64,000 nucleotides of DNA, taken from contig JACJVW010000001.1 in the NCBI GenBank assembly GCA_020637435.1, forward strand, positions 433,060 to 497,059, written 5' to 3'. The notes beneath the pieces are model-generated. The model did not search any database. It was not told the DNA's origin and saw only the letters and a list, made by a program, of their open reading frames with translations. Made by a program: the position numbers and the translations under genes. The number at the start of each line of letters is the position of its first letter. Position 1 is the stretch's first letter. This document shows, one piece after another, positions 6,133 to 46,450 of the stretch. The stretch comes from Candidatus Woesearchaeota archaeon. GTDB taxonomy: Archaea > Nanobdellota > Nanobdellia > Woesearchaeales > JACJVW01.

Positions 6133-6882
6133 TCAATAATAATATTCAGCCTTGATGACCTTTTCAGTCAGCTTCATGTAATCCTTAGCGCCGTTGCAGC
6201 TCTTTGCATACTCAAAGATAGTCGTACCTTTTCCAGGCGCCTCCTTAAGTTTACTGTTCACACGGATAGGTTGGCTGACCAGGTCTGAGAATCCTTTCTT
6301 GATCTCTCCAAGAACCTGGATACTGGACTTGATGCGTTTATCATACATCGTCGGGATAACCATAGTTATCTGCAGATTATGACCAAACAATTCATTAATC
6401 TCATCGATGGTCGATTGCATCTTCTTAAGCGCATCTAGTGCAAGATACTCAGTTGCGACAGGGATGAATGCTTCGTGAGCATACAAAAGTGCGTTCTGGT
6501 TCAGTAGACTTATGCTTGGAGGACAATCGACGATAACATAGTCATACCGGGTTATGCTTTGCAGAGCGCGCTTTAGCACAGTCTCTCTGCTTGACACGCC
6601 AGCAAGGATCATCTCTGCCTCAGAAAGCTTGCTGTTGCTGGGGATAATATGCAGAAACTCAGTCACATGCTGAATCGCGTCTTCCGGATCCTCCCCGTTG
6701 ACAAGCACATCATACATCGTCTTATCAGCAGGTAAGCAGAAATGAGTATTGATATTACCTTGAGGATCAAGGTCGATGACCAAAACCTTCTTATTCTTCT
6801 TCGCAAGGCCAGCGGCCAGGCTTATCGTCGTCGTGGTCTTGCCCACTCCACCTTTTTGATTAATGACACAAATCTTCCTCAT
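6133..6882 (-). CDS. parA: ParA/MinD-family P-loop ATPase (Soj-like), 249 aa
   Basis: The deviant Walker A MRKICVINQKGGVGKTTTTISLAAGLAKKNKKVLVIDLDPQGN is diagnostic. No parB or other partner is adjacent. Confidence 0.85.
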   Translation of the reverse strand: MRKICVINQKGGVGKTTTTISLAAGLAKKNKKVLVIDLDPQGNINTHFCLPADKTMYDVLVNGEDPEDAIQHVTEFLHIIPSNSKLSEAEMILAGVSSRETVLKRALQSITRYDYVIVDCPPSISLLNQNALLYAHEAFIPVATEYLALDALKKMQSTIDEINELFGHNLQITMVIPTMYDKRIKSSIQVLGEIKKGFSDLVSQPIRVNSKLKEAPGKGTTIFEYAKSCNGAKDYMKLTEKVIKAEYYY

Positions 6883-7118: not shown

Positions 7119-7826
7119 ATGGCAAGAAAAACCAAAGAGAAATGGAAGACCTACGGCAATGTATTCGATGAGTTCACGCTCCGCAATTTGTTCCAGCTAT
7201 CGTCTAGAGGGTTTTTCGAAGAGCTACAAAGCCCGATCAAGATTGGCAAGGAAGCCAACATCTTCACCGCTGTCACCAAAGACAGCACGACAGTCATCGT
7301 CAAGATCTACCGTCTCGAGACCTGCGACTTCAACCGCATGCTGGATTACATCAAGACTGACCAGCGCTACGTCAACATAAGAAGATCGCGAAGGAAAATT
7401 ATCTTTGCTTGGACGCAAAGGGAGTTTCGAAACATCATCAAAGCCCGGGAGGCAGGCGTCAAAGTCCCTACCCCTTACATCTTTAAGGACAATATCCTCG
7501 TCATGGAGCAGATAGGCAGTCCAAAACCAGCACCTCAACTAAAGGAAGCATATCCCGAAGAGCCAGAAGCGTTCTATCAGACGACTATCGACTACATGCG
7601 CATGATGTACCTGCACGGACTCATCCATGGTGACCTTTCACAATTCAACATCTTAAACGACAACGACAATCCGGTATTCATAGATTTCTCTCAAGGCCTT
7701 ACTACCGAAAGCCATGGATGGCAGGACTATCTTAGGCGTGACATCAAAAACGTCGCCAACTTCTTCAAAAAACTCGGCATCGACTCCGATCAGGATGACC
7801 TCTACACCCAGATTACCCATAAGTGA
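7119..7826 (+). CDS. rio1: RIO-type serine/threonine protein kinase (Rio1-like), 235 aa
   Basis: GKEANIFTAV matches the RIO ATP-binding loop. LIHGDLSQFNIL matches the catalytic loop and IDFSQGL the metal-binding loop. Confidence 0.8.
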   Translation: MARKTKEKWKTYGNVFDEFTLRNLFQLSSRGFFEELQSPIKIGKEANIFTAVTKDSTTVIVKIYRLETCDFNRMLDYIKTDQRYVNIRRSRRKIIFAWTQREFRNIIKAREAGVKVPTPYIFKDNILVMEQIGSPKPAPQLKEAYPEEPEAFYQTTIDYMRMMYLHGLIHGDLSQFNILNDNDNPVFIDFSQGLTTESHGWQDYLRRDIKNVANFFKKLGIDSDQDDLYTQITHK

Positions 7827-7859: not shown

Positions 7860-8109
7860 TATGAGCAATAAATTTACAACAGGCAAAAAAATAGGCTCTG
7901 AGATGCTTGAAGATATACTCAATGATTTCAATCTTCGGCCCTTAAAACTTCCAAAAGAGATTCATGCGCAAAGATATTTCACTATGCTCGATAATTTTTA
8001 CATACCTGAATTTATGGGATTTGTCTACGGACTTTCCTATACCTCAGCTTGCCACCCTGTTGAAACATACAAATTTCTGACAAGAGACAAGAGTACCTCT
8101 CATATATAG
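7860..8109 (+). CDS. Small hypothetical protein (83 aa)
   Basis: Internal Met of track ORF 7714..8109 immediately after the rio1 stop. No recognisable motif. Confidence 0.25.
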
Positions 8110-8239
8110 CCAAACTCAATCAAAAAATCCAGAGACATTCTATGAGTACCCATCAATATTGATTTGTCCTTAAACGGGACCATCTTTTTTCTAAGACCAA
8201 ACCAAAAACTTTTTAAACATCTGAACCCCCAAATCAATC

Positions 8240-8465
8240 TGATTTTCAGAAATATATGTTAAAATTTAGAAGATCAATCAGAAATCAGAAATTTGGGCCC
8301 ATCAATGAAAAAGAATCTTCAGATTTACGAAAATACAATCTTAATTTCTAAAGAAATATCTGAGATTTATAGAAATAATCTGATTTTCAGAAATTTTAAC
8401 GATGATTCAGAATTTTGCGCAGATTACTCCTTAAATTCAGAGCAAAATTCTGAAATTCAGAAACA
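8240..8465. promoter_or_regulatory. Cluster of at least 5 exact TCAGAAAT octamers plus degenerate and inverted copies, upstream of the abrB-like and giant-gene operon
   Basis: TCAGAAAT occurs at 8246-8253, 8278-8285, 8285-8292 (tandem) and 8387-8394. Variants ttcagaatttt at 8406-8416, ttcagag from about 8447, inverted ttctgaa at 8449-8455 and ttcagaaac at 8456-8464 end at the ATG of the AbrB-like gene. Confidence 0.6.
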
Positions 8466-8755
8466 TGAAGAAGTATCCAAAAATAGTGCAATGTGACAAG
8501 CGAGGTCAGATAGTCATACCTAAAGACCTCCGAAATGAGCTCGGCATAGAAGAAGGCACTGGTTTTTGGATGTATGCAATCACCGATGAAGGTATTCTGC
8601 TCAAGAAGGTCGAAAACCCTGAGCTTGGGGAACACACCGACATGCTCCATGAGCTCAATGACAAAGCAGACAAGATAGATCTCTCACGTGAGAATCTTGG
8701 ACAGTCCATCGAGGAATACAAGAAGAAGAGGCAGGGCAACCTGGATGTAATATGA
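8465..8755 (+). CDS. AbrB/SpoVT/MazE-family swapped-hairpin DNA-binding protein (96 aa)
   Basis: KRGQIVIPKDLRNELGIEEGTGFWMY is the AbrB-type N-terminal beta-barrel motif, followed by an acidic C-terminal tail. Its stop overlaps the giant ORF start by 4 nt (ATGA at 8752-8755). Confidence 0.75.
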   Translation: MKKYPKIVQCDKRGQIVIPKDLRNELGIEEGTGFWMYAITDEGILLKKVENPELGEHTDMLHELNDKADKIDLSRENLGQSIEEYKKKRQGNLDVI

Positions 8756-11700
8756 GGGGGCGCACGATACTTGGTTGGTGTATGATACTTTTCGTGCTAG
8801 CTTTAAGCCTCAGCGCTTCTGCCCAGGAGCTTACTCACACCCAAGTCGAGATCGGCAAACCGGTCACCTGGAAGAAAGTCGTTTCAGACGTACCTGCAGA
8901 CGGCACGCTCAATGTCTATGTTGACAAAGATGCCCGGGACGTCAGAGTGGATGGAAGATCTGACATCACTATCAAAGAAGCTTCGATATGGGACACCTTC
9001 GTCCAAAGCTTTGGCTCAGTGACAGGTTTTGCAGTAAGCGAAGCAGGTACTGAGATCGAGTTTGAAGCGAAAGAAGGTGACGCATACACTATTGTCTACG
9101 AAACAGAAGCACCTAAAGTCTACGAATCACAAAAACAAAAGGACGATAAGCTCATCAAAGAGGTAACCATCTCCTCAGACTATCATTATACTGACATCCT
9201 TAGTTACACAGACATTCCGGAAGTGGAAGCAGAGCAAATCAAACTCTACCATAAACAGGGTGGCATCTTCTTCAAAAATAAAATAGACATCACTTCCGAT
9301 GAATCTTACCGGGTAGAATTCATGGATACCAACGGCAATGGACTTATTGACCGTGTAAAATGGGTAACGCCCCACCTTTCCACCCAGGAATTCGAAGTGG
9401 AAATCACAGTCCTTAACGTTCAGAGCTATCCGCTCATAGGTGGCAACTGGACTATCCGGTTTACTACCGCAGGTACCGCAGACCTCGCTATAAGTGCCTA
9501 CATGGGTACAACCTATGGTGAGACGCTGCCGGATGACCTGTGGCCTATTGAACTTCGTTGCGATGATACTCCGTTGGCCCCTATCTTCAACGGAACTCAT
9601 GTCGTCTATGAGGACTTCTCCTGTGATGGTGTCGCCTACCACACAGTGAAGGTCCTCACAGGCGGTAAACATTACCAGGAATTGACCTTCGGCGATGCGA
9701 CAGCGCATGCACAAAACGATGCGGGCACCGTCACGCTCTCATTCCACCATGCGGCAGGATGTAGTGGCCCCTCCACGATAACATCCTCCTCACGGGCGAA
9801 TGAGAGTGATAGTATTTACATCCTGGTTTCTTATTCGAATGATGAGAACGGCGCTGAGAATACGATAGTGGACATTACAGGCTATGTATCTGGCTGTTCT
9901 CTGGCTTCACCCGGTAATTGCTTCGGCGATGACACGCCTGCTGCGAGCACATCATCCTGCTTCCTAAGCAATTTCCCCATTCCAACAGGCCTGAGTGATT
10001 CTGAATCTGTTACAGTATCTGTCCAGAATAGCACTGGTTCCGTTGCAACAACATCCTCTACGCTCTATATCAATCATGCCCCAGGTGTCGCGGTCGCAAT
10101 CACCCCTGCAAGTCCCCTCATAGGTGAGCAGATCACTTGCACCGGAACCGTAACAGACACGGATGCAGGAGACTCTTTTACAGCAAGCTATCTCTTCGAT
10201 GTGATGGGTTCAATTGTCGACAGCGGCAGTGTGGTCTGTTCAGGAACAACCTGTACCGCCACCTGGACTTCCTCAGGGGTCAATGATGGCGACACCATAA
10301 CCTGCAATATGACGGCAATGGACAGTAATGGACTTACTAGTCCTCAGGTCGCGTCATCTGCTGCCACATTCACCACAATAAGCATCAGTCCAACTTCAGC
10401 AAGTATAGAACGTATGGGTACGCAGACCTTCACGGTCTCTGGTAGTACAGCAACTCCTTTTACCTGGAACCTTTCGGGAACTCCCGTGAATGGTTCAGCA
10501 TTCAATCCCGCAAACCCTACTACCTCGTCTGCGACAGTACAGGGACTGGAAGTGGGTTCCTATGTAGTTAATGTAACTGACAACAACGGTGCATGGACCA
10601 CAGCCACATTGACTGTCACTGACACGAACGCTCCAGCGCCTGCAACGAATGTTGTCGCGGCCGACACTCCTGGCGACCAGGGGGATAATATCACGATAAC
10701 CTGGAGCATCTCTACCGATGACGGCCAGGGAGACAATGATGTAGCCAACTATTCTGTCCTAAGGTCGACCAGCCCTACATCAGGATTTGCTGCCGTTTCT
10801 GGAGCGCTTCCCCCAGGCACAGAGATTTTTGTCGACACAACAGTCCTCCCTGATGTCAGCTATTATTACCGGGTCAGGACCATGGACATCAGTGGCAATT
10901 TTGTCGATTCTGATATCTCCGGACCTGTCAATCTCAACGGCCAGCCCATCATGCAGGAGATAATCTATTACCCGTTAAGTCCGTCTGCCCAGGATAATAT
11001 AACCTTTGTAGCATTCGCGACAGATACCGACAACGAGACGGTGACGATGAACTACACGGTAGAAGTCACTGCCTTTGACGGAGGTACTAACTATCAGGAA
11101 AGCGGAGAGGCCTGGTGCTTCTTCCTTGGTCACGGCATGAGTCAATATGGTACGACATATGCAGAGCCGACAACTGAATGTACGGTAACACTAGCATCCA
11201 GCCACTTCACCAAAGCGGACAAAGTGACTATCACTTTCACCCCTCATGACGGACAGGAGGCAGGAGACCCGCTCTCGCTAAATGGATTCATCGTTATCAA
11301 CAACAGCAGGCCAAACGCATCCAATGTATTTGTCTCGCCGATAAATCCTAACCAGTCCTCTGTGCTCAGCTGTAATTATACGTTCACCGACTTCGATGGA
11401 GACATGGAGAATACGTCCCAGGCTCGTTTCAGATGGTACATCAATAATGAAGGACTCAACGACTTTGTACTTGTGCCTGGCTACACCAGCCGGACAATTT
11501 CAGGAATCTTCGACAAAGACGACATTATCAAATGTGCAGTACAGGTCAAAGACATTGATTCCAGTTGGTTAAAACAACCTCTATACGCATCCGCATATGC
11601 TACATCAACAGAGATCACAATAAAAGACAATGCGATCCCTCAGATCATAGATTACTGGATCTCTGCAAATAACACTAACCCTGCGGCACCAGGAGATGAC

Positions 11701-14700
11701 ATCTACTTCAATGTAAGCTGGGTCGACTACGAAGACCCAAGCGACCAGGCTAGGATGTACGTCTGTGACGCATGGGAAGATATTGAGAATCAGTACGATG
11801 GTGGAACCTCTGAGATCTTCTTTGGTGATGATACAGCAAATGCTGATCAAGAAGTAAGACTCTATACGAACGAGACTGGCCAGTACGTCTACACCCTGGC
11901 AATCAAACCTACAAAATTCATCGAAAACTCCTTTACTACATACAGTCCAGGCTCCACCGTCACCGCAGGAGATGTCTTCGTAGGCTCAGCACTCCTCGAC
12001 TTCCCTCCTTATTACACTTATTATGATGCTGACCACAGCGACACATATACCCTCGGTGAGTCCATTATATGGGATAATCAGTCCATGGGAACGAACAAGA
12101 CATACAACGCGCAATACGACGTAGTCATCTACGGTGATGAAGTGGTTGATGGCAGTTCTCTAGTCAGGTTCAACGAGAGCAATATCCACACCTTTTATGA
12201 CTCAGACAGCAGCGGGACTTACACTACAGGAGATGACATCTACCTTGACAGCGGTGCAACCCCTAATCAGGTTGATGCAGGCGATGTAAGGGTAAGTATA
12301 GTCTCCAACCGGCCCTCTGCGGAGACACTTTCAACCTCCTTCATTTACGACATCATCGTCCGTGAAGTGGACAATATCGGTGATACGACCGGTCTAGTCA
12401 TAGCAAGGGACAATGACAATACCTTCACCCTTGGAAAATACAACTATTTTGTCCCGCAGTATAATGCTCAACCACTTCCTGGAAAATATCTCATGTTCAC
12501 CATCTGCATAGATGTTGATAACGACGATACTTGCGACTCAGATTCGGACAATTTCAATGATATGGTCTTTTTCAAAGCAGATCCCGCACCAGGAGCAGGT
12601 TATCAGGCGTACAATGGAACGGGCTCAGTGCACTACAACCCGGATATCAGGTTCAACTATGGTGCAAGCGAAAGCCCAGGTTGTGCGGGAGCAACCTACT
12701 GCAGCACTCCCAATTCTCCTCTCAACGATATTTCCTGCACCTATGAAGCGGTCTTCGAAAATTCGTGGAACAACACAGTCAATCTCAAGGTCTGTGATGA
12801 GCACGATGCTTGCTCTGTCAACAGAGTAGCAAACTTCTTTGTGAATCACATCCCTATAATTTCAGATCTTACCATAAACAGCAGTATAGACGGTGTCAAT
12901 ATTGACGCAGTCAATAATTTCAGCACTAGCAGGAACCTTATATGTAATTACACTGCTTCAGACAGTGACCCGCAAGGCAATACTATCGGCTTAAGCAGCG
13001 TCATCTGGTTTAAGAAAAGCCAGAGCGCAAGTGTCTTCCAGCGTGCGATAGTCCCAAACAGCACTTTACTCGCGAACAGTAATACCGAACCAGGAGACCA
13101 GTGGATCTGCCAGATCACGGTGCATGATGATTTTGATAATTCGCTAGGGACCAACTCATCTCCTGTAACGATCCTAAGTGCGCAGGGTGACGAACTGACC
13201 ATCCTATCAGTTTTTGATGATTCCTCCTTGACCGCACCTGTACTGTTGGATGAAGACGTTACCATCGAGGTCTCCTTCCTCTACACGGGAACCGATGATG
13301 TCAAAGTCTATGTCTGCAACTCTTCGTCCATAACCTCGGGTGGCTGCCTTGATCACACCTACGCAGCCACGGATTTCGTCTCGGACAACCCGATCAATGT
13401 AAGCTGGGAGGCAGATGCTCCTGGAACACACAGATACTACGTCAAGGTCTGTGATGAGTCATTCAGATGTTCAGCGGTGGTAGGGACGTCTACTGAATAC
13501 AATTACACCGTCAATCAGCGTCCTATTGTCAACTCAACGCTCCTTACGACGTATACTGGTTCGACCAACTACACAGACGCTGACCCCCTCAACTGTACCT
13601 ACATAGGCAACGACCAGGATAGCATAGGTACGGGACTAAACGCGACCTACACCTGGTTCCTCAGAAGATCAGGAGGGGCGTTCCAAAAGATTGCATTACC
13701 TCCGACAACCGCAACGATCGCAGAATCACAGACTATTCTCGGCGATGTATGGATCTGCCAGGTTGACCTTTCAGATGGTTACCATAGCGCGGATGCGCTC
13801 AACAGCAGCCCCGCATTCATTCAGAGCCTAAGTACGGGAATTATCGGCATAACTGATGTGAACGATACAGTAGGCAGTGTCGTTGAGCTCGGAGATTCCA
13901 TCGACATCGACGTCTACTGGCAGTCTGCTACCGGCGATAACGCAAAGGCATTTATCTGCAATTCCACGAGAGTGCTCGCAAGCGGTTGTCTTGATGGTAC
14001 CATTATGGAGACGAGTTATACCTCAGCAAATCCTATCTCTGCATCCATCACTCCGACAATAGGGGGGTTGCAGTATTATTATGCCATGGTCTGTGATACC
14101 TCCTGGAACTGCTCATATGTCCAAAGCTTTGACAGCAAAGGCAATAGGTTGAATTACACGGCAAACACCCCCCCTGTCATCGGATATGTTACCGTCAACA
14201 CGACTACTGACGGACTTACCCCGGACGGTCTGCAGAATTACACGGTGGACACACACCTGATCTGCAATTTCTCCATCTCGGACCCGGACATGCTTTCTGA
14301 ACCAAGTTTTGAGATTGCATGGTACAAAAATGGCCAGAAAGTAAATTTCCCTTCAGTCACTGCGATTTCAAAATGGAATACGCAGGGAGGCGAACTATGG
14401 AGTTGTGGGGTCACTCCTATAGACGAATACGGAACTTATCCGGAAATGATTTCACAAAGTGTATTCATCACGGGCATCTCTAATGAAATTGTAGTAGTTG
14501 AGAATATCACTGCTAACTACAATGAGAGCAACCCTCTACTCAATGGACAAGCTGTAACCTTCAACCTAAAGGCGATGAGCCTCAACAGCGTCTCCTGGTT
14601 CGCATACATATGTAATACCTCAAACATAGACGTCACAGGCTGCTGGGATGACCAATTCGCAACAATATCGACTGCAACAGAGGAATCCACAGCATCCTAC

Positions 14701-17700
14701 ACCACAGTCTACGAAGATCACGGAGTGATACCTTATTATGTACTGATCTGTGATACCACGTTCAACTGTTCACAGGTACAGGGAGTTGACACTGCCCTTA
14801 ATTTCACGGTTAACCATCGCCCAGTCCTTACTTATGTGCGGTTGAACACGACAGATCTTACATCAAACTTCACCAGTGACCGCAATCTGATCTGTCAGTT
14901 ATCTTACAATGACCCTTACAGCTACAACAATGGCTACAACATTTCATACACATGGTACAGGAATGGCATCCTGCAGGCATACCCTAGTAGCATGGATGTG
15001 CTCTCCAACACACAGACACAGACGGACGATGAGTGGTACTGTGAAGCTCAGGTCAGCGACGGCTATCATTCAAGTGATGTGGTTGCCGCGGCATTTGTCA
15101 ATATCAGTGACTACGCGCCAGGTTCCGTCTGGATAACGAACTTGACGACAAACAGTAATTCCAGCTCTTACCTCAGGTACCCTTCCAATGTTACCTTTAA
15201 TATTACCTGGAACTCGACAGAGATTCTTGATGTGCGGGCATTTATCTGCAGCAATAGCAGTATCGGCCCTTCTGGATGTCTCCAGACTACTATCGCCCAA
15301 AGCGGATACACCCGCAGTAATCCGATAGAATTGACCTACCTAACAACCAATAATGAATCAGGACCTACTGACTACTATGTGAAGCTCTGTGACACCTCCT
15401 TCAATTGTTCAGGAGTCGCAGGCATTAGTATACCTCAATACTACTACATCAATCAACCCCCTATTGAGACCGCTGTCTGGATGAACACGACAGACGGAAC
15501 AGACAATTTCACCAGTGACAGGAACATCATCTGTAGATATACTGCTATGGACCGGGACGATGTAAATGCGAGCGACCCACTTATACCTGAATATTATTGG
15601 TGGGTGGGATCTACCGATGACAATATGGAGTTGGTGGAAACAAGCACAAGCACACAAGTACTGACAAACAACAACTATGAACCTGGTTACTATGTACAAT
15701 GCGGCGTTCGCACTTCCGATGGGATGCACTTTGGAGACGGAACTTTCAGCCAGGCACAACAGATAAGCACCGAAGTAGTAGAAGGGATAGTTATCTCAAA
15801 TGTCACCCACAACTCGCCAACAGAGACGCCGGTGACCGAAGGCAACGTTATCCTATTCTCCATCGACTGGTACAGCAGCTACGGCCTTCCTGTAAGAGCA
15901 CACATCTGCAGCTCACCAGACTTCAACTACAGTGGCTGCTATAACACTACTCTTGCTGCATCAGGTGGTTTCTCAAGCACAAACCCGCTCATAGTAAGCA
16001 TGGCCACTAATGGATCGGAGCCGACCATACAGAACTACTGGGCAAGGATCTGTGACAACAGTTACAACTGTTCAGAGCCGTTCCCTGAAGCAGGAATAAA
16101 TCTGAATGTATCCGTCAACCACCGACCTAATGCGGTGAATGTGACTGTCAGACAATTTGATCAGTACAGTACTACGGGATTGCTCATCTGCAACTACTCT
16201 TTTAATGACACGGATATGGACCCGGAGAACGCAACTTTAGCTACATTCCTCTGGTACACAGTAACCAACAGCGTCAAATCCCTTATACCAGGACAGAACG
16301 AAAGGTTCCTCGAGGACGCGTTCAGTTATGGAGATGAGATAACCTGTAGCGCAAGAGTCGCAGACAACCATTCAGTCAGCGACAATCAGTTCAGAGATGC
16401 CAATAATACCATAAGATTCAGCGCGATACCACCTAAACCCGTCCTTTGGAATATGCCCTTTGCAGTATCTGCAGCAACAGGTAATAGGATGATAGGGTAT
16501 TTCGGTATACCTAACGTCAATTACTCAGTCCACCTGCGGCAGGAATTCAATGTGACAACGCCCGTCACCAACACAACCTCTACGGATAGCAGGTACTTCG
16601 GTTTCGCTTTCCCGGTCTACAAGGCTGCCAATAAATCTGCGTTCGTCATAGTTCACCGCGACGATCTTGACCTGTTCCAGACTGGAAGATACATCTCCTA
16701 CGACAACCATAACCGGACATACTTTGCACGATACAGGATAACAGGCAACGAAGATCTCTTCGACGATACTTACAAGGTATTTACTTCGCCTGCACTGGAG
16801 CACAATATTACCTCCTCGACCGCGATTTTCGTCTACAACAGTACCTATCCTTCAGGATGGTTCAATATGTCATTGCCATCCTTATTCGTAGGTGAAAATA
16901 CCATCAGGATCAGGGGACTGTCATCCTATGGCAATGGACCTTACCTGAATCAGACCCTCTACCTTGATCTGGAGAACCCGACCATAAACATATCCAAAAT
17001 AGGCAACTACAGTTTCAGCCACATGTCGACCATCTACTGGTCCGTCTATGACAATATCTCCCTTAAAGACATGCTCCTCCAGGTTTCTAACAGTTCAGAA
17101 ATAGTCAACTACACACTCTACGATTACAACTTCAATGACACTGACACTCAGATAGTCTGCGATGGCAATCTGACAGACCAGGACTGCCGGGTGGAGATCT
17201 ACCTCAATAATAATACCCTGCACAACCTCACATTCACAGTCACTGACAGTTCAGGAAGAAGCACGACTGAAGTACGCTATGACTACGTCGTCAATACCTC
17301 AGTGCTCCCGGTCATACTTGTCTACCAGGGTTTCATAGATGATGCTCTTGACGAGCACATCCCCGCGACCATCGCTACCAATACAACATTCACCGCAAAC
17401 TGGACCTCTGATGCACATGCCATAACACGTTACTACGAAGTCAAGATAGTAGAATATGAAGGAGACCTTCTTGTCAAAGACATGACCAACTGGACTGAAG
17501 TTGGCAAAGAGAGAAATTGGACTGCGACCGTGCCTGCACGAAACCAGTATATCTACAAATTCCATGTAAGGTCTCTATACCAGGATCTAAGCTACAGCGA
17601 AGAATTTGTCAGTGAGGGCATGTTTTATTTCGTGGATGAAGCTCCGGTCTGCATTGATTGTGTCAGATTTGTAGGCACAGATAACGGCGGGCAGACATTC

Positions 17701-20700
17701 ACAAATTCACCAGACACCATGAAAGTGGCTTGGAACTTCACAAGCGAAGCTCCTATAACTCGCTACAGGTACGCGATAGGAAAAGTAAAGTACCCTTCGC
17801 CTGGCTACAACTCTCATGCGTACAGCAACGACTATCTCAATGATGAGATAACGATAATTAAGACCATGACCGAAGGTGATCAGTATTACGCCGCTGTCAG
17901 AGCGATGAACGAGAATGGCATCTGGAGCCCCTGGTCAATAACCTTGGGCAATCTTACCGTTGACTTGACAGCTCCACAGGGTGGTTCAATAACATACCCA
18001 ACAGGATTGGTCTCTACAAACTTCTCGGTATCCTACAACGACGGGTATGACGACATCAGCGGAATTAAGTCAAGAGTACTCTATCGTGCTACCGCTCAGT
18101 TGATCAATGGGCAGTGCCAGGGATTGTATGTCTACTACCCTGTCAACAGTACCATCATACCGGGGTCAGGAAGCTACACACAGGTCATAGGCAATGGTCT
18201 TTGTTATCGGTACAAGTACATGGTCACAGACTATGTGAACAACACAGCATCATACTTCAAGGGAGAACCGTACGATGTGAAGACAGACACTACCCCTCCC
18301 AATAGTTTCAGTGTCGTCCTGAACAATGGATATTACATCACCTCATCATCAACCTTCACCGTTGACTGGACAGACAGCGCAGATGCACAGTCAGGACTCT
18401 CTCATTACAGCTACATCATCACTGAGGATGACAAGCAGATAGGCAACTGGACTAACATTACAGTTGGCAACACAACAGTGACATTTGCTCAGGTAACCCT
18501 GCCAGATCCGAGGCACCAGGCAAGCTACAGAGTTATCGTAGTTGCTCACAGCAGGAACGGTCTGACGACCCAAGTCACAAGCAATGCTGTCGCATACATA
18601 GATATTGCACCTCCATCCCCTCTTGAGCTGCTGCAGTTTGAGAATCAGACAAATATCACTACTGATAATCTTGTTGATCAGGTGAACAACAATATGACCA
18701 ATATCACCTTCCGGGGTGAGAATGGTATCAGTTGTGTCGCTTCCGTCTACCCCATAGACTATGAGATGTACGATGTATCAAAAACATACCTGACTAACTG
18801 CTCAACGGCAAACGACAATGTAACATGCAGATTCAATACGACAGAGACAGCATACTACACAAGATACATCGTCTGCAGTGACTACGCAGGCAATATGCAA
18901 TTTGTAGATGATGCTCTCAATATTACTTGGAAAGTCGATTTCATAGGTCCTGACATCAATATGACGACCAGTATACAGGGCGAAGTGCTTGGCGAGATGA
19001 TTCTGTTCAACCTTAGTATTACAGACCTCACCGCTGTCGACACAGTCATCTATGAGATAGTAAACGCGACCAGCATGTCGCAGATATTTGACTCAGGTAA
19101 ACTGACCGGTGATGAGATTTACAGCCTACTGTGGAACAGCACTGAATACTTCGCAGGTCAGACCGAACTGCTTACTATCATAATTACAGCAAATGACACA
19201 AATGGTTTCATCCAGAAATTGTTCACAAACTTCACAGTCGATAACACAAGACCTGTCATCAATATTGTCAGTCCTAATCTCAACAACAGATTCTTCAACC
19301 AGAATTTCACGCTTGATGTGCGGGTAAGAAATCCCTTCTACAACACCTCGCTTGGGATCTACAGTATGAATGGCACAAAGATGCATAGCCTGTATAATGT
19401 AAGCAATGTGCTCAGATCAAGCTATGATTATGCAGGACTTGTCGCAACAGACAGCTGGCCTGATGGAAACTACACCATAAGGGTTAATGCTTCAGGAGTA
19501 AGCAATTCCATGAATAAGAGTCTGACCATATATCTTGACAGGACCGCACCATCTCACCTCCCTATTGTCAATCCAAAAGGTCCCGTCTACAATGATGCCT
19601 CAGTGCTCCTTTGGTCGTATTGGCCTATAGAATACAACTTTGTGGCTAACACCTGCGACATAGAAGAAGTACTTATCCAGCACAATGCTACCGGCACCAT
19701 GACCAACTATACAGTAGGGGCTACAGGCTACAATTTCAGTGTAATCATACCGCCTAGCCAGTTAGACAATCACGAGCAGATAGCATGGCTTGTGCATGCA
19801 AAAGATTTCAGCGGAAACTGGAACACAACTGAGCTAAAGACATTCACAGTATCCAACAGGGCTCCCTATCTGTCTCTGGTAATACCTGACCAGGACTGGC
19901 CCGTCAACATCAACAATTCTCCTGTTGAAGCAGCAATACATCTTATCGACCCCGACCAGGACACTCTTACTTTCAGCATCATCCAGCTTCCCGAGAAATC
20001 AAAGATATATGATGAATTGAACAATCCTTCGACCATAAGTGCGAATGACGGTGAATATGATGCGGTAACCTTCCTTGTGGCAAAGAACGCCAACGGAACT
20101 GCGCTTGAAAAGGCGACGACCAACATGCTTGGCAACCCTACATTTGAAGAGGGCAATATGACCTATTTGAATTCCTGGCAGGTCGTAGGTGAACCGCAGA
20201 AGAACTGGACGCTCAATATTGAAGGTAACTACAGTGTTATTGTCAATAGGAATCACTACTACATGCAGACTGTGCCGGTAACCCCTAACACAGAATACAC
20301 CTTGAGCGCGACCATGAGGTCAGTCAGTGGTACTACTCACGGCAGATTGCATGTTGATTGGCTCGATAGCACCCAGCAATACCTCGGTACCTGCCTCATC
20401 TGTGGGCTAGGTAATACTTGTGCCTTTACGCCTGAATTAACCGTGACACCGGAAAGAAAGTCTGCAAATATGACCAGTCCTTCCGGTGCGGTGTACGCTA
20501 GGATCTATGTTGACGCACAGAACAGCAGTTATACTGTAGTAGATGATATGCAATTCGAGAAAAGTAGCTTCGCTACATCCTTCGTCAATGGATCCAGAGC
20601 TGCAACATATATCGAGTATGATATTAGTTCGCACTACAATGATTCAGCGGGAACGATAGGATTCTGGTTCAGACCTTTCTGGAATACCTCATCAGATGAA

Positions 20701-23700
20701 GACCATCTGCTGCTGCAGATGTCAGCGGATTTCGCATTGTATGCTACCAAAGAAGAGAATGACTACATGCTCAGGCTAGGCGATTCCTCTACGTATACAG
20801 AAATGAATATTACTGGCTGGAATACTGATGACTGGCACTACCTGACTATAACTTATGCATCGACCATATCATGGCTCTATGTTGACGGAAATCTTATAGG
20901 AAGTTCATACAGCGATCCGAACAGTGTTACTACGTTGTATCTTGGTAAAGCCGCATCAGATTCCATCTACGCTAACGGAATATTCGACGATCTCATCTTC
21001 ATAGGAAAGACCTATAACGCGACACAGGTCCTACAGCTCAACACGAGCGGACCTGTGCTTTCATCTCCTAACATCAATTATACGATGAACTCCAGTAACG
21101 CAGTCATTTTCTATTCCTTCGACTACAACTGGTCCGGCAGTGAAGCCGCGTACATAACTGCAGATGATGGTTACGCTATTGCGGGAAGCAACGTCTTTGG
21201 ACTGACCGTCAATCCGCTCAATATAGCACCCGTCATAGCCCCTATTCCAAACCAGACTACTTGGGACAATCAGACGTGGTCCTATACGATAAACGCGACA
21301 GACGCAGACAACCATCCTCTCACCTACGTGGTAAATGCGAGCTGGATCGAGATCAACGAGAGCGGATACATGACATTCAATCAGTCACCTCTACTTAGAG
21401 GCCACTATGGTTTGAAGCTGACGGTCTGCGATAACCAGGATGAGATCAATAGCTGTGTCAATCAGACTTTTAATCTCACGATACTCTATACAGACATGGA
21501 CAGCGATGGAATCTCAGACACCTTTGATTTCATCACAGGCAATGAGACAGGAATAGTCACAAATATACCGATCACGATGATAATCGTGAACTCCAGCTAT
21601 TTCGACAATTCGACTAACACCACTTTCTTCCTTCCTGGTTCGACCAATATTAGCCAGTATTACGGAGGACTGGTGCACATTACTCTCAAGAACAGTAGCC
21701 ATGACTTTGTGGACTTTGATTTCATACTCAATGCAACATCCATCCTTGATCTCGGCAGCATAGTTATTGAAGTGAATAATGCGAACATGAGCGCGATAAG
21801 CGTAAGTGGCCTGATACTTCCAGTAAATATGACCAAGGCAGTACATCTGCAGAAGTATAACACTACCATCATGTCTGTATGCATCAAAGATAATGCGACC
21901 ACCAATATATCAGCAATATCAGTCAACTGCACCGCAGCCGATGAGATTCTCGTGCCTTGCGACAACCAGAACTATTCAGGTTACTTCTGCGAAGACAGGA
22001 ATACCACCTACAGAGTCTCTGGTCTCAACCATTCCGCAGTAAAAGAGCAGGCTGGCTGCACAGACAAAGACGGAGACGGCTACTTCTTTGGAAGTCTGTG
22101 CATAAGTTCGCCGTTGGATTGTCAGGATACTGATCAGAACAGATACCCTGGAGCTACTGATATCTGTGGAAACGGAATCGATGAAGATTGTTCAGGCGCT
22201 GACAAGAAGTGCTCAAGTAGCAGTTCAGGCGGAGGAGGGGGCGGAAGCCGGGGCGGAAGCTCAGGTTTCATCTCAAATAAGAAACAGTGCGAAGATGGCA
22301 AAGACAATGATGGAGACGGTCTTATCGACTTGCAGGACAACGGTTGCACAAAAGAGACAGATGACGATGAGAGCGACGAATGTGTCGAGAACTGGGTCTG
22401 TGGAAACTGGAATCTTTGTGTCGACGGAAAACAGACCAGATCCTGCTATGACACAAGTGAATGCAATACCTACTATGTCAGGCCGCACATGCTGCAGAGC
22501 TGTGAATACACGCCAAAAGTGATTGAGAAAGAGGTCACCTCATGTACTGATTATTCACAGAACTATGGAGAGACAGACGTAGACTGTGGCGGAGACTGCA
22601 AAGCATGCGGACTAGGCAAGAAATGCCTCTCAAATATTGACTGCGACTCTGGTTATTGTGATAGCCTGACCAAAATATGTTCAGAGCTGCTTACGGAACC
22701 TGTCCTGCCTACCTGTTCAGACATGATACAAAACCAAGGGGAAGAAGATGTTGATTGTGGTGGACCATGTGATTCCTGCAAGACTGAAAGTGCATTCTTC
22801 CAGTGGATACTCATGTTCGTCGTAGTGCTCGGTCTTCTCGGTATAGTCGCGGGAATCGCTCTGGCCGGACTGGAAAGCCGCCCAAGAAAAGAAGAACCCT
22901 TCACTGCTGAATCCCTCAAAGCGGCAGCTGAGGATACGGAAGGAAGGATATTCCTTGAATACTACAAAGGCACAGACAAAGAAAAGATCCTTCGCATAGG
23001 CAAAGCCCTTGGCATACCGAAGAAGAGAGTTGAAGACATACTGCACCTCTCCGAGTATGCCCTGCTCATGCTCAAAAGAGGTATAAGTAAAGATGTTATT
23101 GAGAGCAAACTGCTTTCAAGAGGCTGGCCAAAAGAACTCATCGAGCTCTTCTTCATCCACAACTTCATATTCAATGACCTTATGAAGAATAAGTCTATCA
23201 TCTACAAGAAGATAGAAGACAAACGTGCTGAAGGAAAGAGTGATGAGCTGATCGCCATCGAACTTAAAGAGGAAGGGTGGCCGGAAGACGTGGTCACCAT
23301 GGCTTTACTCTTTGAAGAGCATAAAGACACTCCAAAGGAACAGCCTGCGGAAGACCTGGTAGCGGATGAAATGAGCATCCTGCTGGAATTGCATAAGGGA
23401 GCTACACCGGCATCGATCAAATCGATGCTTGCTGAAAAGGGCTGGAAACCCGAAATCATCGACTCTCTTGCAAAACTTGAAGAATCCATAAGGTTGCCGC
23501 TCTCCCGCGGTACAGAACCGGATGAGATAATCAGACAGTTCACCTCCCAGGGTTGGCCTATGGAACTCATCGAGTTTGAGATACTCCTGCAGGATATCGA
23601 AATACGTGTACTTCATGCGATGAAGAACAATATTCCTGTTGAGCAGCTCATCCAGAGTCTGAAAAAAGAAGGTTATCCGGAGAATATGGTCAGGGAAGTC

Positions 23701-23988
23701 CTACAAGCCCATAGAGACACGGACCTGCAGCAGCCAAAACAGGACGAACATATTGTCGCGCTCGAACAGATCTTCCGACTCCTTAAGGAAGGGAAGACCG
23801 CTCAGGAGATTTCTGACTACGCCCAGAAGAAACGATGGCCGAAGAACATTATGTACCAGGCAATAAACACTGAGAAGTATATCAAAGAGATGCGATCGAA
23901 GGGAAATTCAGACGAGAGCATCAGGTTTGAGCTAAAGAAGATGGGTTGGCCCGAAGACCTCAGCGAAAAACTTCTAAGACAGGTCTGA
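8752..23988 (+). CDS. Giant secreted surface protein (5078 aa). It has a signal peptide, an N-terminal module shared with giant 2, Ig-like domains, about 7 tandem ~215-aa Cys-containing repeats, a CBM-like domain, a LamG/ConA-like domain, a cadherin-like domain, MopE-type Cys-rich metal-binding motifs, a Gly/Ser linker, one TM helix, and a cytoplasmic tail of 7 GWP repeats
   Basis: Single uninterrupted ORF. The signal peptide is MRGRTILGWCMILFVLALSLSASA. Repeated ICNYTASDSDP...GDQWICQITVHDD units alternate with YYVKVCDESFRCSAV units between roughly 11.3 and 16.2 kb. GNPTFEEGNMTYLNSWQVVG is CBM-like. WHYLTITYASTISWLYVDGNLIG...FDDLIFIG is LamG-like. IAPVIAPIPNQTTWDNQTWSYTINATDADNHPLTYVV is a cadherin/dystroglycan-type domain. 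CQDTDQNRYPGATDICGNGIDEDCSG is MopE-like. A SSSSGGGGGGSRGGSSG linker precedes the TM helix FFQWILMFVVVLGLLGIVAGIALAGL and a 380-aa cytoplasmic repeat tail. N-x-S/T sequons are extremely frequent. Confidence 0.9.
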   Translation: MRGRTILGWCMILFVLALSLSASAQELTHTQVEIGKPVTWKKVVSDVPADGTLNVYVDKDARDVRVDGRSDITIKEASIWDTFVQSFGSVTGFAVSEAGTEIEFEAKEGDAYTIVYETEAPKVYESQKQKDDKLIKEVTISSDYHYTDILSYTDIPEVEAEQIKLYHKQGGIFFKNKIDITSDESYRVEFMDTNGNGLIDRVKWVTPHLSTQEFEVEITVLNVQSYPLIGGNWTIRFTTAGTADLAISAYMGTTYGETLPDDLWPIELRCDDTPLAPIFNGTHVVYEDFSCDGVAYHTVKVLTGGKHYQELTFGDATAHAQNDAGTVTLSFHHAAGCSGPSTITSSSRANESDSIYILVSYSNDENGAENTIVDITGYVSGCSLASPGNCFGDDTPAASTSSCFLSNFPIPTGLSDSESVTVSVQNSTGSVATTSSTLYINHAPGVAVAITPASPLIGEQITCTGTVTDTDAGDSFTASYLFDVMGSIVDSGSVVCSGTTCTATWTSSGVNDGDTITCNMTAMDSNGLTSPQVASSAATFTTISISPTSASIERMGTQTFTVSGSTATPFTWNLSGTPVNGSAFNPANPTTSSATVQGLEVGSYVVNVTDNNGAWTTATLTVTDTNAPAPATNVVAADTPGDQGDNITITWSISTDDGQGDNDVANYSVLRSTSPTSGFAAVSGALPPGTEIFVDTTVLPDVSYYYRVRTMDISGNFVDSDISGPVNLNGQPIMQEIIYYPLSPSAQDNITFVAFATDTDNETVTMNYTVEVTAFDGGTNYQESGEAWCFFLGHGMSQYGTTYAEPTTECTVTLASSHFTKADKVTITFTPHDGQEAGDPLSLNGFIVINNSRPNASNVFVSPINPNQSSVLSCNYTFTDFDGDMENTSQARFRWYINNEGLNDFVLVPGYTSRTISGIFDKDDIIKCAVQVKDIDSSWLKQPLYASAYATSTEITIKDNAIPQIIDYWISANNTNPAAPGDDIYFNVSWVDYEDPSDQARMYVCDAWEDIENQYDGGTSEIFFGDDTANADQEVRLYTNETGQYVYTLAIKPTKFIENSFTTYSPGSTVTAGDVFVGSALLDFPPYYTYYDADHSDTYTLGESIIWDNQSMGTNKTYNAQYDVVIYGDEVVDGSSLVRFNESNIHTFYDSDSSGTYTTGDDIYLDSGATPNQVDAGDVRVSIVSNRPSAETLSTSFIYDIIVREVDNIGDTTGLVIARDNDNTFTLGKYNYFVPQYNAQPLPGKYLMFTICIDVDNDDTCDSDSDNFNDMVFFKADPAPGAGYQAYNGTGSVHYNPDIRFNYGASESPGCAGATYCSTPNSPLNDISCTYEAVFENSWNNTVNLKVCDEHDACSVNRVANFFVNHIPIISDLTINSSIDGVNIDAVNNFSTSRNLICNYTASDSDPQGNTIGLSSVIWFKKSQSASVFQRAIVPNSTLLANSNTEPGDQWICQITVHDDFDNSLGTNSSPVTILSAQGDELTILSVFDDSSLTAPVLLDEDVTIEVSFLYTGTDDVKVYVCNSSSITSGGCLDHTYAATDFVSDNPINVSWEADAPGTHRYYVKVCDESFRCSAVVGTSTEYNYTVNQRPIVNSTLLTTYTGSTNYTDADPLNCTYIGNDQDSIGTGLNATYTWFLRRSGGAFQKIALPPTTATIAESQTILGDVWICQVDLSDGYHSADALNSSPAFIQSLSTGIIGITDVNDTVGSVVELGDSIDIDVYWQSATGDNAKAFICNSTRVLASGCLDGTIMETSYTSANPISASITPTIGGLQYYYAMVCDTSWNCSYVQSFDSKGNRLNYTANTPPVIGYVTVNTTTDGLTPDGLQNYTVDTHLICNFSISDPDMLSEPSFEIAWYKNGQKVNFPSVTAISKWNTQGGELWSCGVTPIDEYGTYPEMISQSVFITGISNEIVVVENITANYNESNPLLNGQAVTFNLKAMSLNSVSWFAYICNTSNIDVTGCWDDQFATISTATEESTASYTTVYEDHGVIPYYVLICDTTFNCSQVQGVDTALNFTVNHRPVLTYVRLNTTDLTSNFTSDRNLICQLSYNDPYSYNNGYNISYTWYRNGILQAYPSSMDVLSNTQTQTDDEWYCEAQVSDGYHSSDVVAAAFVNISDYAPGSVWITNLTTNSNSSSYLRYPSNVTFNITWNSTEILDVRAFICSNSSIGPSGCLQTTIAQSGYTRSNPIELTYLTTNNESGPTDYYVKLCDTSFNCSGVAGISIPQYYYINQPPIETAVWMNTTDGTDNFTSDRNIICRYTAMDRDDVNASDPLIPEYYWWVGSTDDNMELVETSTSTQVLTNNNYEPGYYVQCGVRTSDGMHFGDGTFSQAQQISTEVVEGIVISNVTHNSPTETPVTEGNVILFSIDWYSSYGLPVRAHICSSPDFNYSGCYNTTLAASGGFSSTNPLIVSMATNGSEPTIQNYWARICDNSYNCSEPFPEAGINLNVSVNHRPNAVNVTVRQFDQYSTTGLLICNYSFNDTDMDPENATLATFLWYTVTNSVKSLIPGQNERFLEDAFSYGDEITCSARVADNHSVSDNQFRDANNTIRFSAIPPKPVLWNMPFAVSAATGNRMIGYFGIPNVNYSVHLRQEFNVTTPVTNTTSTDSRYFGFAFPVYKAANKSAFVIVHRDDLDLFQTGRYISYDNHNRTYFARYRITGNEDLFDDTYKVFTSPALEHNITSSTAIFVYNSTYPSGWFNMSLPSLFVGENTIRIRGLSSYGNGPYLNQTLYLDLENPTINISKIGNYSFSHMSTIYWSVYDNISLKDMLLQVSNSSEIVNYTLYDYNFNDTDTQIVCDGNLTDQDCRVEIYLNNNTLHNLTFTVTDSSGRSTTEVRYDYVVNTSVLPVILVYQGFIDDALDEHIPATIATNTTFTANWTSDAHAITRYYEVKIVEYEGDLLVKDMTNWTEVGKERNWTATVPARNQYIYKFHVRSLYQDLSYSEEFVSEGMFYFVDEAPVCIDCVRFVGTDNGGQTFTNSPDTMKVAWNFTSEAPITRYRYAIGKVKYPSPGYNSHAYSNDYLNDEITIIKTMTEGDQYYAAVRAMNENGIWSPWSITLGNLTVDLTAPQGGSITYPTGLVSTNFSVSYNDGYDDISGIKSRVLYRATAQLINGQCQGLYVYYPVNSTIIPGSGSYTQVIGNGLCYRYKYMVTDYVNNTASYFKGEPYDVKTDTTPPNSFSVVLNNGYYITSSSTFTVDWTDSADAQSGLSHYSYIITEDDKQIGNWTNITVGNTTVTFAQVTLPDPRHQASYRVIVVAHSRNGLTTQVTSNAVAYIDIAPPSPLELLQFENQTNITTDNLVDQVNNNMTNITFRGENGISCVASVYPIDYEMYDVSKTYLTNCSTANDNVTCRFNTTETAYYTRYIVCSDYAGNMQFVDDALNITWKVDFIGPDINMTTSIQGEVLGEMILFNLSITDLTAVDTVIYEIVNATSMSQIFDSGKLTGDEIYSLLWNSTEYFAGQTELLTIIITANDTNGFIQKLFTNFTVDNTRPVINIVSPNLNNRFFNQNFTLDVRVRNPFYNTSLGIYSMNGTKMHSLYNVSNVLRSSYDYAGLVATDSWPDGNYTIRVNASGVSNSMNKSLTIYLDRTAPSHLPIVNPKGPVYNDASVLLWSYWPIEYNFVANTCDIEEVLIQHNATGTMTNYTVGATGYNFSVIIPPSQLDNHEQIAWLVHAKDFSGNWNTTELKTFTVSNRAPYLSLVIPDQDWPVNINNSPVEAAIHLIDPDQDTLTFSIIQLPEKSKIYDELNNPSTISANDGEYDAVTFLVAKNANGTALEKATTNMLGNPTFEEGNMTYLNSWQVVGEPQKNWTLNIEGNYSVIVNRNHYYMQTVPVTPNTEYTLSATMRSVSGTTHGRLHVDWLDSTQQYLGTCLICGLGNTCAFTPELTVTPERKSANMTSPSGAVYARIYVDAQNSSYTVVDDMQFEKSSFATSFVNGSRAATYIEYDISSHYNDSAGTIGFWFRPFWNTSSDEDHLLLQMSADFALYATKEENDYMLRLGDSSTYTEMNITGWNTDDWHYLTITYASTISWLYVDGNLIGSSYSDPNSVTTLYLGKAASDSIYANGIFDDLIFIGKTYNATQVLQLNTSGPVLSSPNINYTMNSSNAVIFYSFDYNWSGSEAAYITADDGYAIAGSNVFGLTVNPLNIAPVIAPIPNQTTWDNQTWSYTINATDADNHPLTYVVNASWIEINESGYMTFNQSPLLRGHYGLKLTVCDNQDEINSCVNQTFNLTILYTDMDSDGISDTFDFITGNETGIVTNIPITMIIVNSSYFDNSTNTTFFLPGSTNISQYYGGLVHITLKNSSHDFVDFDFILNATSILDLGSIVIEVNNANMSAISVSGLILPVNMTKAVHLQKYNTTIMSVCIKDNATTNISAISVNCTAADEILVPCDNQNYSGYFCEDRNTTYRVSGLNHSAVKEQAGCTDKDGDGYFFGSLCISSPLDCQDTDQNRYPGATDICGNGIDEDCSGADKKCSSSSSGGGGGGSRGGSSGFISNKKQCEDGKDNDGDGLIDLQDNGCTKETDDDESDECVENWVCGNWNLCVDGKQTRSCYDTSECNTYYVRPHMLQSCEYTPKVIEKEVTSCTDYSQNYGETDVDCGGDCKACGLGKKCLSNIDCDSGYCDSLTKICSELLTEPVLPTCSDMIQNQGEEDVDCGGPCDSCKTESAFFQWILMFVVVLGLLGIVAGIALAGLESRPRKEEPFTAESLKAAAEDTEGRIFLEYYKGTDKEKILRIGKALGIPKKRVEDILHLSEYALLMLKRGISKDVIESKLLSRGWPKELIELFFIHNFIFNDLMKNKSIIYKKIEDKRAEGKSDELIAIELKEEGWPEDVVTMALLFEEHKDTPKEQPAEDLVADEMSILLELHKGATPASIKSMLAEKGWKPEIIDSLAKLEESIRLPLSRGTEPDEIIRQFTSQGWPMELIEFEILLQDIEIRVLHAMKNNIPVEQLIQSLKKEGYPENMVREVLQAHRDTDLQQPKQDEHIVALEQIFRLLKEGKTAQEISDYAQKKRWPKNIMYQAINTEKYIKEMRSKGNSDESIRFELKKMGWPEDLSEKLLRQV

Positions 23989-46100: not shown

Positions 46101-46189
46101 GATGTTACACCTCTTCATATACGATTTTATTAATATCACCATAAAGGTATTTAGTATCCTTTTATGTATACTCATATATAAATGTTTCC

Positions 46190-46440: not shown

Positions 46441-46450
46441 AGCTGTACGG

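Follow-up and report, generated by a model that had tools for sequence, protein, structure and literature searches.

A phased palindrome array between promoter and start codon of an abrB-like/giant-gene operon in Woesearchaeota: a probable autoregulatory operator

Archaeal regulators of the Lrp type, Ss-LrpB among them, control their own genes through regularly spaced palindromic boxes that lie on one helical face and overlap or follow the TATA box. More generally, archaeal repressors that occupy sites downstream of TATA block the recruitment of RNA polymerase. In bacteria, the MraZ boxes were reportedly described by Eraso and colleagues in 2014 as direct repeats with a period of ~10 bp. MraZ is an AbrB-fold regulator encoded by the first gene of its own operon; phased repeats lie in its own promoter, and in a small genome this is sometimes the only occurrence of the motif (PMC8475190). 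The sites of the Bacillus AbrB and Abh proteins, mapped by ChIP-chip, consist of pairs of 5-bp motifs in inverted or tandem orientation with A/T-rich spacers; several tetramers cover more than 40 bp, and the usual outcome of binding is repression (PMC3025583). Sso7c4, a characterised archaeal relative of AbrB, is described as a chromatin-type protein (PMC3159460). Our search of the literature found no publication that links Woesearchaeota with AbrB or that defines an operator for an archaeal AbrB-family protein.

Here we analyse a 64-kb stretch of DNA from a Candidatus Woesearchaeota archaeon (64,000 nucleotides, referred to below as the window), in which an abrB-like gene and a giant gene are preceded by a dense array of short repeats. 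We read positions 8200-8464 as the promoter and phased operator array of the abrB-giant operon, most likely bound by the AbrB-like protein and autoregulatory, and we put the probability of this sequence-based reading at roughly 60%. By analogy, the array most likely belongs to a known kind, namely the autoregulatory operator array of an AbrB-fold regulator that heads its operon, with the Bacillus AbrB/Abh sites and the MraZ boxes as its closest analogues. It stands out for its strict 20-bp phasing, the reach of the array from start site to start codon, the conservation across the lineage and the giant gene as cargo. The first-pass annotation of this DNA had proposed an iterated operator or binding-site array with the adjacent AbrB-like protein as candidate binder, a proposal strongly supported by conserved placement, position relative to promoter and start codon, helical phasing, linkage to abrB and a Bacillus-like build.

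The intergenic gap that contains the array (8110-8464) is 355 bp long and has a GC content of 29%. Upstream of it lie a RIO1 kinase gene (7119-7826) and an 82-aa ORF (7861-8109), the latter without a family match and dissimilar to the ORF found at the same place in one relative (L001). A ParA/MinD-family gene (6133-6882), syntenic in relatives, lies two genes upstream of the array. Six consecutive T residues (8185-8190, + strand) can be read from the sequence past the RIO1 gene and the ORF of 82 aa. It is likely to be an archaeal oligo-T terminator that closes the upstream transcription unit, a role that we assume from what is general in archaeal termination.

The predicted promoter of the operon is a BRE/TATA-like element on the + strand in which AACCAAAAAC is followed by TTTTTAAA (8200-8217). 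This block is conserved in the closest relative, L156. Transcription is predicted to start near 8240, and the first palindrome of the array begins 28 nt after the TATA box. Two other candidate promoters were rejected. The sequence TTTATAGA at 8366, before the second palindrome, is not conserved in L156 and was therefore dropped. A proximal, leaderless promoter just before the ATG was set aside on the ground that the spacing of TATA is inconsistent across loci.

The octamer TCAGAAAT had initially been taken as the repeating unit. The true unit is instead a 13-bp palindrome, TCTGA-W3-TCAGA, with a 20-bp period, and the octamer is the right half of this palindrome together with its A-rich flank. 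Each unit is composed of two TCWGA pentamers, 8 bp apart from centre to centre. Exact TCTGA-W3-TCAGA occurs three times in the window (8238, 8379 and 8449), every time in the upstream region of abrB. A repeat finder located the 18-mer AATCTGATTTTCAGAAAT in two exact copies (8236 and 8377) and the related ATTCTGAAATTCAGAAAC in one (8447), and the 13-bp palindrome is contained in all three.

Palindrome 1, TCTGATTTTCAGA (8238-8250, within the 18-mer 8236-8253), is promoter-proximal and coincides with the predicted start of transcription; L156 preserves it without change. Palindrome 2 has the same sequence (8379-8391, within the 18-mer 8377-8394) and lies 141 bp past palindrome 1. Palindrome 3, TCTGAAATTCAGA (8449-8461), is found 70 bp, or 3.5 periods, past palindrome 2 and ends 3 nt before the ATG. 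The stretch between palindromes 1 and 2 (8258-8378) is occupied by decayed inner units in the 20-bp register, comprising TTAGA at 8266, the tandem TCAGAAATCAGAAAT at 8278-8292, TCAGA at 8319 and TCTGA at 8359. Further half-sites (8399-8441) follow palindrome 2, with TCAGA at 8407, gCAGA at 8419-8423 and TCAGA at 8437. Counted from 8238, the 20-bp register provides ~11 slots. Perfect palindromes fill slots 1 and 8, a single half-site is retained in most of the rest, and palindrome 3 is offset from the register by half a period. When assigned by hand, 12 of the 13 window pentamers lie within 1-2 bp of registers r and r+8, and a stricter automated register score places 9 of the 13.

No other palindrome cluster was found in the 64-kb window. 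Sites with at most one mismatch occur elsewhere only at 23523 and 38672, and both look like single, chance matches. A CRISPR array or a minisatellite was considered and rejected, given units of 13 bp on a 20-bp period that are mostly decayed and TRF output for the array region consisting of only two 2.4-copy micro-arrays, one of them AATCAGA x2.4.

Five exact copies of TCAGAAAT had been counted within 8240-8465. The repeat cluster is there, with four copies rather than five (8246, 8278, 8285 and 8387, all on the + strand). The supposed fifth is likely to be either TCAGAAAC at 8457-8464, a near-copy that abuts the ATG at 8465, or an exact minus-strand copy at 8073-8080, outside that interval. 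As stated earlier, the array extends to the AbrB start codon and ends there. Over the whole window TCAGAAAT occurs exactly 11 times versus 3.9 expected, and 79 times if one mismatch is allowed, with 11 of these 79 falling within 8246-8464.

The local null model consisted of 5000 dinucleotide-preserving shuffles of the intergenic region 8110-8464. In the real sequence of this region TCAGAAAT occurs 4 times versus a shuffle mean of 0.08, the pentamer TCWGA 13 times versus 1.85, and TCTGA-N3-TCAGA 3 times versus 0.00. The observed count was not attained by any of the 5000 shuffles for any of these three motifs. The claim that the array is far denser than chance is thus borne out at the level of local composition.

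Conservation was assessed in 63 loci (353 kb in total) from other Woesearchaeota/Nanoarchaeota genomes, with one genome per species. These loci contain 77 exact palindromes. For 71 of them, the orthologous AbrB gene (96 aa) follows at a distance of no more than 400 nt. At least one exact palindrome is present in 48 of the 63 loci and at least two in 23. The 15 loci that lack an exact palindrome mostly hold forms with one or two mismatches, such as TCAGA-AAT-TCAGA, TCTGA-ATA-TCCGA and TCTGA-ATA-TAAGA. The spacer is composed of A/T only in 70 of the 71 upstream palindromes (AAA in 17, ATA in 15, TTT in 14, with other A/T triplets in the rest) and is TTG in the remaining one. A tandem variant, TCAGA-W3-TCAGA, is present in L020, L026, L031 and L042. 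The mean density of TCWGA upstream of abrB is 4.5 per 250 nt versus 0.4 in shuffles, and the window is extreme among the loci, with 13 pentamers per 250 nt versus a median of 5.

The leaders of the different loci cannot be aligned apart from the motifs. This divergence extends to L156, whose AbrB protein is 82% identical to that of the window and in whose diverged leader the promoter block CAAACCAAAAACT(T/A)TTTAAA remains intact. Three intact TCTGATTTTCAGA palindromes are also found in the L156 leader, and the first two are 140 bp apart versus 141 bp in the window.

The position of the array relative to the promoter and the gene is also conserved. A simple pattern, TTTAWATA, was used to recognise TATA boxes and matched 33 loci (an example box is cgaaagGTTTATATA). 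In 26 of these 33 loci the first palindrome is found 13-28 nt after the first T of the BRE/TATA box. The centre of an archaeal TATA box usually lies near -26/-27, and the first palindrome would therefore either cover the start point or fall in the interval that separates it from TATA. At the other end, in ~23 loci, 2-15 nt separate the last palindrome from the ATG.

Distances between copies of TCAGA, pooled over the loci, peak at 20 bp (36 pairs), 40/41 (36 pairs), 60/61 (33 pairs), 80/81 (19 pairs), 100/101, 120/121 and 140/141, with almost no pairs between the peaks. The spans from first to last palindrome follow the same series (40, 61, 80, 100, 121, 141 and 160 bp), the value for the window being 141+70. 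The fit to a register was scored in the 42 loci that have four or more pentamers: with a period of 20.1 bp, registers r and r+8 account for 209 of their 227 pentamers, versus 134 under the null. A unit repeat of 20 bp corresponds to two turns of the DNA helix, so that all sites would face the same side of it. The array would thus represent a clean natural case of helical phasing in an operator.

Two loci with a rearranged gene order, L027 and L030, bear on the linkage between sites and gene. In both, the order is a large ORF, abrB, two palindromes and the next gene. Here abrB is fused to the end of the large upstream ORF without an upstream gap, and the palindrome pair, with a spacing of 103 bp, is found just 3' of abrB, one member directly after a TATA-like box. 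The sites therefore stay beside abrB in these rearranged loci. A metagenome search by DNA motif alone, for two palindromes 60-81 bp apart, recovered an abrB homologue in 12 of the 80 loci listed, and in these the array is always upstream of the gene, with spans of ~60-64 or 80 bp. The other 68 of the 80 loci listed are not beside abrB, and those that were read are tandem repeats of a longer unit that contains the palindrome. The palindrome pair alone is therefore not diagnostic.

The abrB-like gene (8465-8755, + strand) encodes a 96-aa protein with an N-terminal SpoVT/AbrB swapped-hairpin DNA-binding domain and two C-terminal helices. An NCBI entry for a Woesearchaeota AbrB/MazE/SpoVT-family protein matches it at 100% identity. 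It scores 30.9 bits against PF04014 (cut-off 24.7), its best Pfam match being the MazE_antitoxin family, and 39.6 against TIGR01439 of NCBIfam (cut-off 28.3). A profile search of the PDB matched residues 7-50 to SpoVT (2ro5, E=1.5e-5) and AbrB (1z0r, E=1.7e-4). The domain spans ~50 residues of beta-alpha-beta-beta structure with a conserved G(R/Q)xVIPKxxR segment; in the AF2 model, strands are assigned to residues 6-10, 33-40 and 43-48 and a helix to residues 20-26. The AlphaFold monomer model as a whole is poor (pLDDT 62), which would be expected of a swapped-hairpin dimer. We found 496 homologues, nearly all of 96-98 aa and with ~55-82% identity among the matches listed. The N-terminal 48 residues are near-invariant across the family, and throughout the lineage abrB occurs as a conserved single-copy orthologue in syntenic position.

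The giant ORF (8752-23988, + strand) encodes 5078 aa with a signal-peptide-like N terminus and overlaps the abrB stop codon by 4 nt (ATGA). Pfam identifies only a Laminin_G_3 domain and a MopE-type metal-binding motif in this protein. The nearest relatives share the gene order ParA/MinD (minus strand), RIO1, a gap of ~320-365 bp, abrB and giant ORF. A large ORF downstream of abrB matched the giant protein of the window in 28 of the 47 relatives compared. In ~27 of the 63 loci, abrB shares a 4-nt overlap with an ORF that stays open to the locus end and measures at least ~560-1000 aa, and a long open ORF follows abrB at any offset in ~35 of the 63. From this overlap, a single mRNA is expected to encode both AbrB and the giant protein, and we regard abrB and the giant gene as one conserved operon with the giant ORF as the presumed regulated cargo of the array.

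The similarity to the Bacillus subtilis AbrB/Abh operators (TNCCA-W4-TGGNA and TGGNA pairs) lies in a regulator with an AbrB N-domain, pentamer pairs with A/T spacing and long, multi-unit footprints. Paired pentamers with an A/T-only spacer, the architecture of AbrB-type operators, are what is found here, and both inverted (TCTGA..TCAGA) and tandem (TCAGA..TCAGA) pairs occur, as in Bacillus. The pentamer itself is different, being TCWGA with a 3-bp spacer versus TGGNA with 4-5 bp. Moreover, the motif is sharply defined and near-invariant, whereas that of Bacillus AbrB is notoriously loose, and the strict 20-bp period over up to ~11 slots is a further difference. The array described here is combined with an archaeal BRE/TATA promoter and is apparently local to one operon, whereas Bacillus AbrB is a global regulator, and the C-terminal half of the 96-aa protein is unrelated by sequence to Bacillus AbrB/Abh.

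With the MraZ boxes upstream of dcw (mraZ-mraW-fts), the locus shares a small AbrB-fold regulator that heads an operon and phased repeats in the promoter region of that regulator. MraZ nevertheless has two AbrB-like domains per chain, is bacterial and has cell-division genes as its cargo rather than a giant secreted protein. Resemblance to the MazE/AbrB-fold type II antitoxins extends to the MazE_antitoxin Pfam match, the 4-nt overlap with the next gene and palindromes in the gene's own promoter. In contrast to such antitoxins, however, the partner is a secreted protein of 5078 aa with lectin-like and metal-binding-motif matches and not a small toxin, and the gene is syntenic rather than patchy or mobile. 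Since there is no adjacent small toxin gene, and since abrB is a conserved orthologue within a conserved ParA-RIO1-abrB-giant synteny, we rejected a type II toxin-antitoxin module. The operators of Ss-LrpB are similar in having phased palindromic boxes at or after TATA on one helical face. They differ in that the protein is of the HTH + RAM type and not an AbrB swapped hairpin; the array of the window has a shorter, 20-bp period and more units, and it reaches the start codon.

We infer the AbrB-like protein as binder, the stoichiometry of binding and the sign of regulation. In the mechanism that we propose, the BRE/TATA element at ~8200-8217 would fire rightward from ~8240, with the site array extending from there to the start codon. 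The outermost units, on the predicted transcription start and beside the ATG, are perfect, with decayed half-sites as the inner units. One symmetric N-domain dimer of the 96-aa AbrB-family protein would bind each pentamer, each palindrome would be occupied by a dimer of dimers, and the protein would pack cooperatively along the phased array. Occupancy between TATA and the start point would block the recruitment of RNA polymerase, a mode of repression argued from the location of the sites downstream of TATA. The site at the start codon might serve as an added roadblock or as the anchor of a loop. The predicted outcome is negative autoregulation of abrB together with the translationally coupled giant secreted protein; with both on one mRNA, such an autoregulatory loop would restrain the expression of a very costly gene.

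A more far-reaching version, which we regard as speculative and rather doubtful, is that the AbrB-like protein polymerises cooperatively on the 20-bp array, nucleating at the two perfect end palindromes and filling the decayed slots. The resulting nucleoprotein filament would be an all-or-none switch for the operon of a giant, probably host-contacting, surface protein. It would operate lineage-wide in Woesearchaeota (Nanoarchaeia), and its threshold would be set by how many slots an array contains. From the strand bias of the lone half-sites described below, the same repeats might in addition be recognised once more in the leader RNA.

Uncultivated DPANN archaea such as Woesearchaeota encode giant surface proteins and possess very few regulators. 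For related lineages, a part in contact with the host cell has been proposed for proteins of this sort (PMC10266531). The combination of a 96-aa protein, a 13-bp site and a 20-bp spacing rule, all conserved across at least 60 species, offers a testable handle on their control. Within the literature found, no earlier archaeal regulator of the AbrB family has a defined operator, and this protein would be the first.

That regulatory sites are conserved in front of a conserved gene does not reveal which protein reads them, and the array might be a DNA operator read by a different sequence-specific factor encoded elsewhere, with the AbrB-like gene just the first of the genes it regulates. A Woesearchaeota-like array, L148, fits this explanation in preceding a TrmI-like methyltransferase gene on a contig without abrB; the factor that reads the array can therefore act away from abrB and need not be AbrB. 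The gene after the L030 array is also a class I methyltransferase, and from these two cases the factor may have a few other targets. We nonetheless consider a different factor unlikely. Across the 63 loci, L027 and L030 included, abrB is the only gene of a DNA-binding type that stays beside the sites, and 64 kb of the window hold a single abrB gene and a single site cluster. In addition, the paired-pentamer build matches known AbrB-family sites, and the motif and the DNA-binding half of the protein vary equally little. A role at the level of RNA seems improbable, somewhat more so than a different DNA-binding factor. It would have the phased UCAGA(AA) motifs or small hairpins in a 5' leader of ~225 nt control the translation or stability of the abrB-giant mRNA through an RNA-binding protein or a structure. 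It is suggested by the location of the array in the stretch from predicted start site to ATG, where it is probably transcribed, and by the strand bias of the lone half-sites, in which TCAGA is favoured on the coding strand by 112:42. This bias exceeds the A:T ratio of only 1.26 and is not predicted by a fully symmetric binder. The last palindrome, which abuts the start codon, could mask initiation. The leader also folds somewhat better than its shuffles (MFE z = -2.09, with 7 of 200 shuffles as good). A 5-bp stem with a 3-nt loop would be weak, however, and both the two-fold symmetry of the unit and a period of two DNA helical turns point to recognition as DNA. In some loci, moreover, the first palindrome lies 13-18 nt after TATA, which is upstream of the start and so would be untranscribed, and the leaders are unalignable outside the motifs. 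Rfam gave no match at the gathering score in the whole window, and at E<=1 in 8100-8560 only a chance match to snoR117, with 18 bits versus a gathering score of 42. With this Rfam result and a fold z of only -2.09, a known structured RNA was rejected; no tRNA was found in the window.

The 20-bp period, the A/T-rich sequence (29% GC) and the nearby, syntenic ParA/MinD-family gene would also suit an element of replication or partition, be it iterons, origin repeats or a centromere-like site. Plasmid iterons typically have a period of 20-22 bp and likewise occur as repeats of ~20 bp in A/T-rich regions. Such an element is nevertheless very improbable here. Cumulative GC skew is monotonic across 1-64 kb, without a turning point at 8 kb, and the neighbours of the array are the RIO1 kinase gene and abrB rather than an Orc1/Cdc6 or Rep gene. 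The repeats are always between the BRE/TATA box and the abrB ATG, and in rearranged loci they follow abrB, not ParA. Unlike iterons, they are palindromic units that decay inward and keep a set place relative to promoter and start codon. A/T richness and the short tandem stretch AATCAGA x2.4 could also point to non-functional, low-complexity DNA produced by slippage or left by a mobile element, an explanation that is hardly credible. Against it stand the strict phasing, the enrichment far above local shuffles and, in dozens of species, the recurrence of the palindrome at the matching syntenic position within leaders that cannot be aligned elsewhere, a conservation that in practice refutes it.

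The first-pass annotation had also noted a low-complexity ORF at 8293-8496 and called it spurious. The ORF is present, and no leader ORF is conserved among the relatives; it is therefore taken to be spurious, as it had been. A small leader peptide was considered and rejected on similar grounds. ORFs of 31 and 63 aa are present in the window and others in L006-L008, but many loci have no ORF of at least 18 aa and the sequences are unconserved. For annotation, this means that ORFs called within the abrB leader are spurious. In a locus of the same species (L157), a 63-aa version of the 8293-8496 ORF has been annotated by public gene callers.

It had further been suggested that the same motif be sought upstream of other giant genes. 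The window contains a second giant gene, starting from 47008, and the motif is absent there; the palindrome is not a general mark of giant genes. The region upstream of this second gene (46176-46450) carries a different repeat, TTTTTAGTAA, in three copies.

The abrB-giant operon of the window is flanked by a RIO1 kinase gene (7119-7826) and a gene for a KH-domain, Pno1/Dim2-like protein (24563-25183), and the adjacency of RIO1 and abrB is kept in relatives. RIO1 and KH-domain (Pno1/Dim2-like) genes are frequent neighbors in archaea, which makes the 15.5-kb operon look as if it had been inserted between the two long ago.

A second giant ORF of at least 5664 aa (47008-64000) is still open at the end of the window. 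It is preceded by a gene for a 185-aa Phage_integrase-family protein (46451-47008), to which it is coupled by a TGATG overlap; the presence of a small upstream gene coupled to the giant ORF is common to both giant ORFs of the window. Upstream of the Phage_integrase-family gene lies a 275-bp, very A/T-rich stretch (within 46176-47010), and TTTTTAGTAA is found in this region as three exact copies (at 46221, 46270, and 46422) against an expectation of 0.06. With this gene and these copies before the second giant ORF, the two giant genes of the window differ both in the small DNA-binding-type gene that leads each of them and in their repeat motif.

The repeats of the abrB leader show a strand preference. 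In the upstream regions of the abrB loci of 63 relatives, taken together with window positions 8238-8464, lone half-sites on the coding strand occur as TCAGA and TCTGA in a ratio of 112:42, a bias that exceeds what the A:T ratio of 1.26 accounts for. In decayed palindromes from the same regions, the right half is better preserved than the left.

A 63-aa ORF (8305-8496; also 8293-8496) spans the array and overlaps the start of abrB, and has been publicly called as a gene in two loci of the same species (L157 and L158, 841-1032). Conservation of this ORF was looked for among the relatives and was not found, and the gene call should be regarded as false. An 82-aa ORF following RIO1 (7861-8109) had no match in Pfam or NCBIfam and did not resemble the 77-aa ORF that occupies this position in a related locus, L001. 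TCAGAAAT occurs within the 82-aa ORF on the minus strand (8073-8080).

Two relatives' loci are rearranged (L027, 3291-3515; L030, 3291-3498). In both, abrB shares 4 nt with a large ORF (at least 984-993 aa), and the stretch downstream of abrB and before the next gene holds two palindromes at a distance of 103 bp. In L030 this next gene encodes a class I methyltransferase. A similar, Woesearchaeota-like array precedes a TrmI-like methyltransferase gene, with abrB not nearby, in a further locus, L148. Metagenome contig Ga0307508_10317894 (L132) carries at its end, in positions 1-150, about seven copies of a 20-bp tandem repeat (consensus TCTGAAATTCAGATTGACAT) with small variations. This 1.1-kb contig is unrelated, and abrB was not detected on it. 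The palindrome and 20-bp period of this repeat are identical to those of the abrB arrays.

Two other relatives (L019, about 2810-2930; L028, about 200-330) share a conserved ORF of ∼40 aa (MRR...HEYS..Y..E.G.YEWGC.M*) that comes after the last palindrome of the array and before abrB, and that may be an extra small gene within the operon. In both loci this ORF is followed by a Shine-Dalgarno-like GGAGGTG box.
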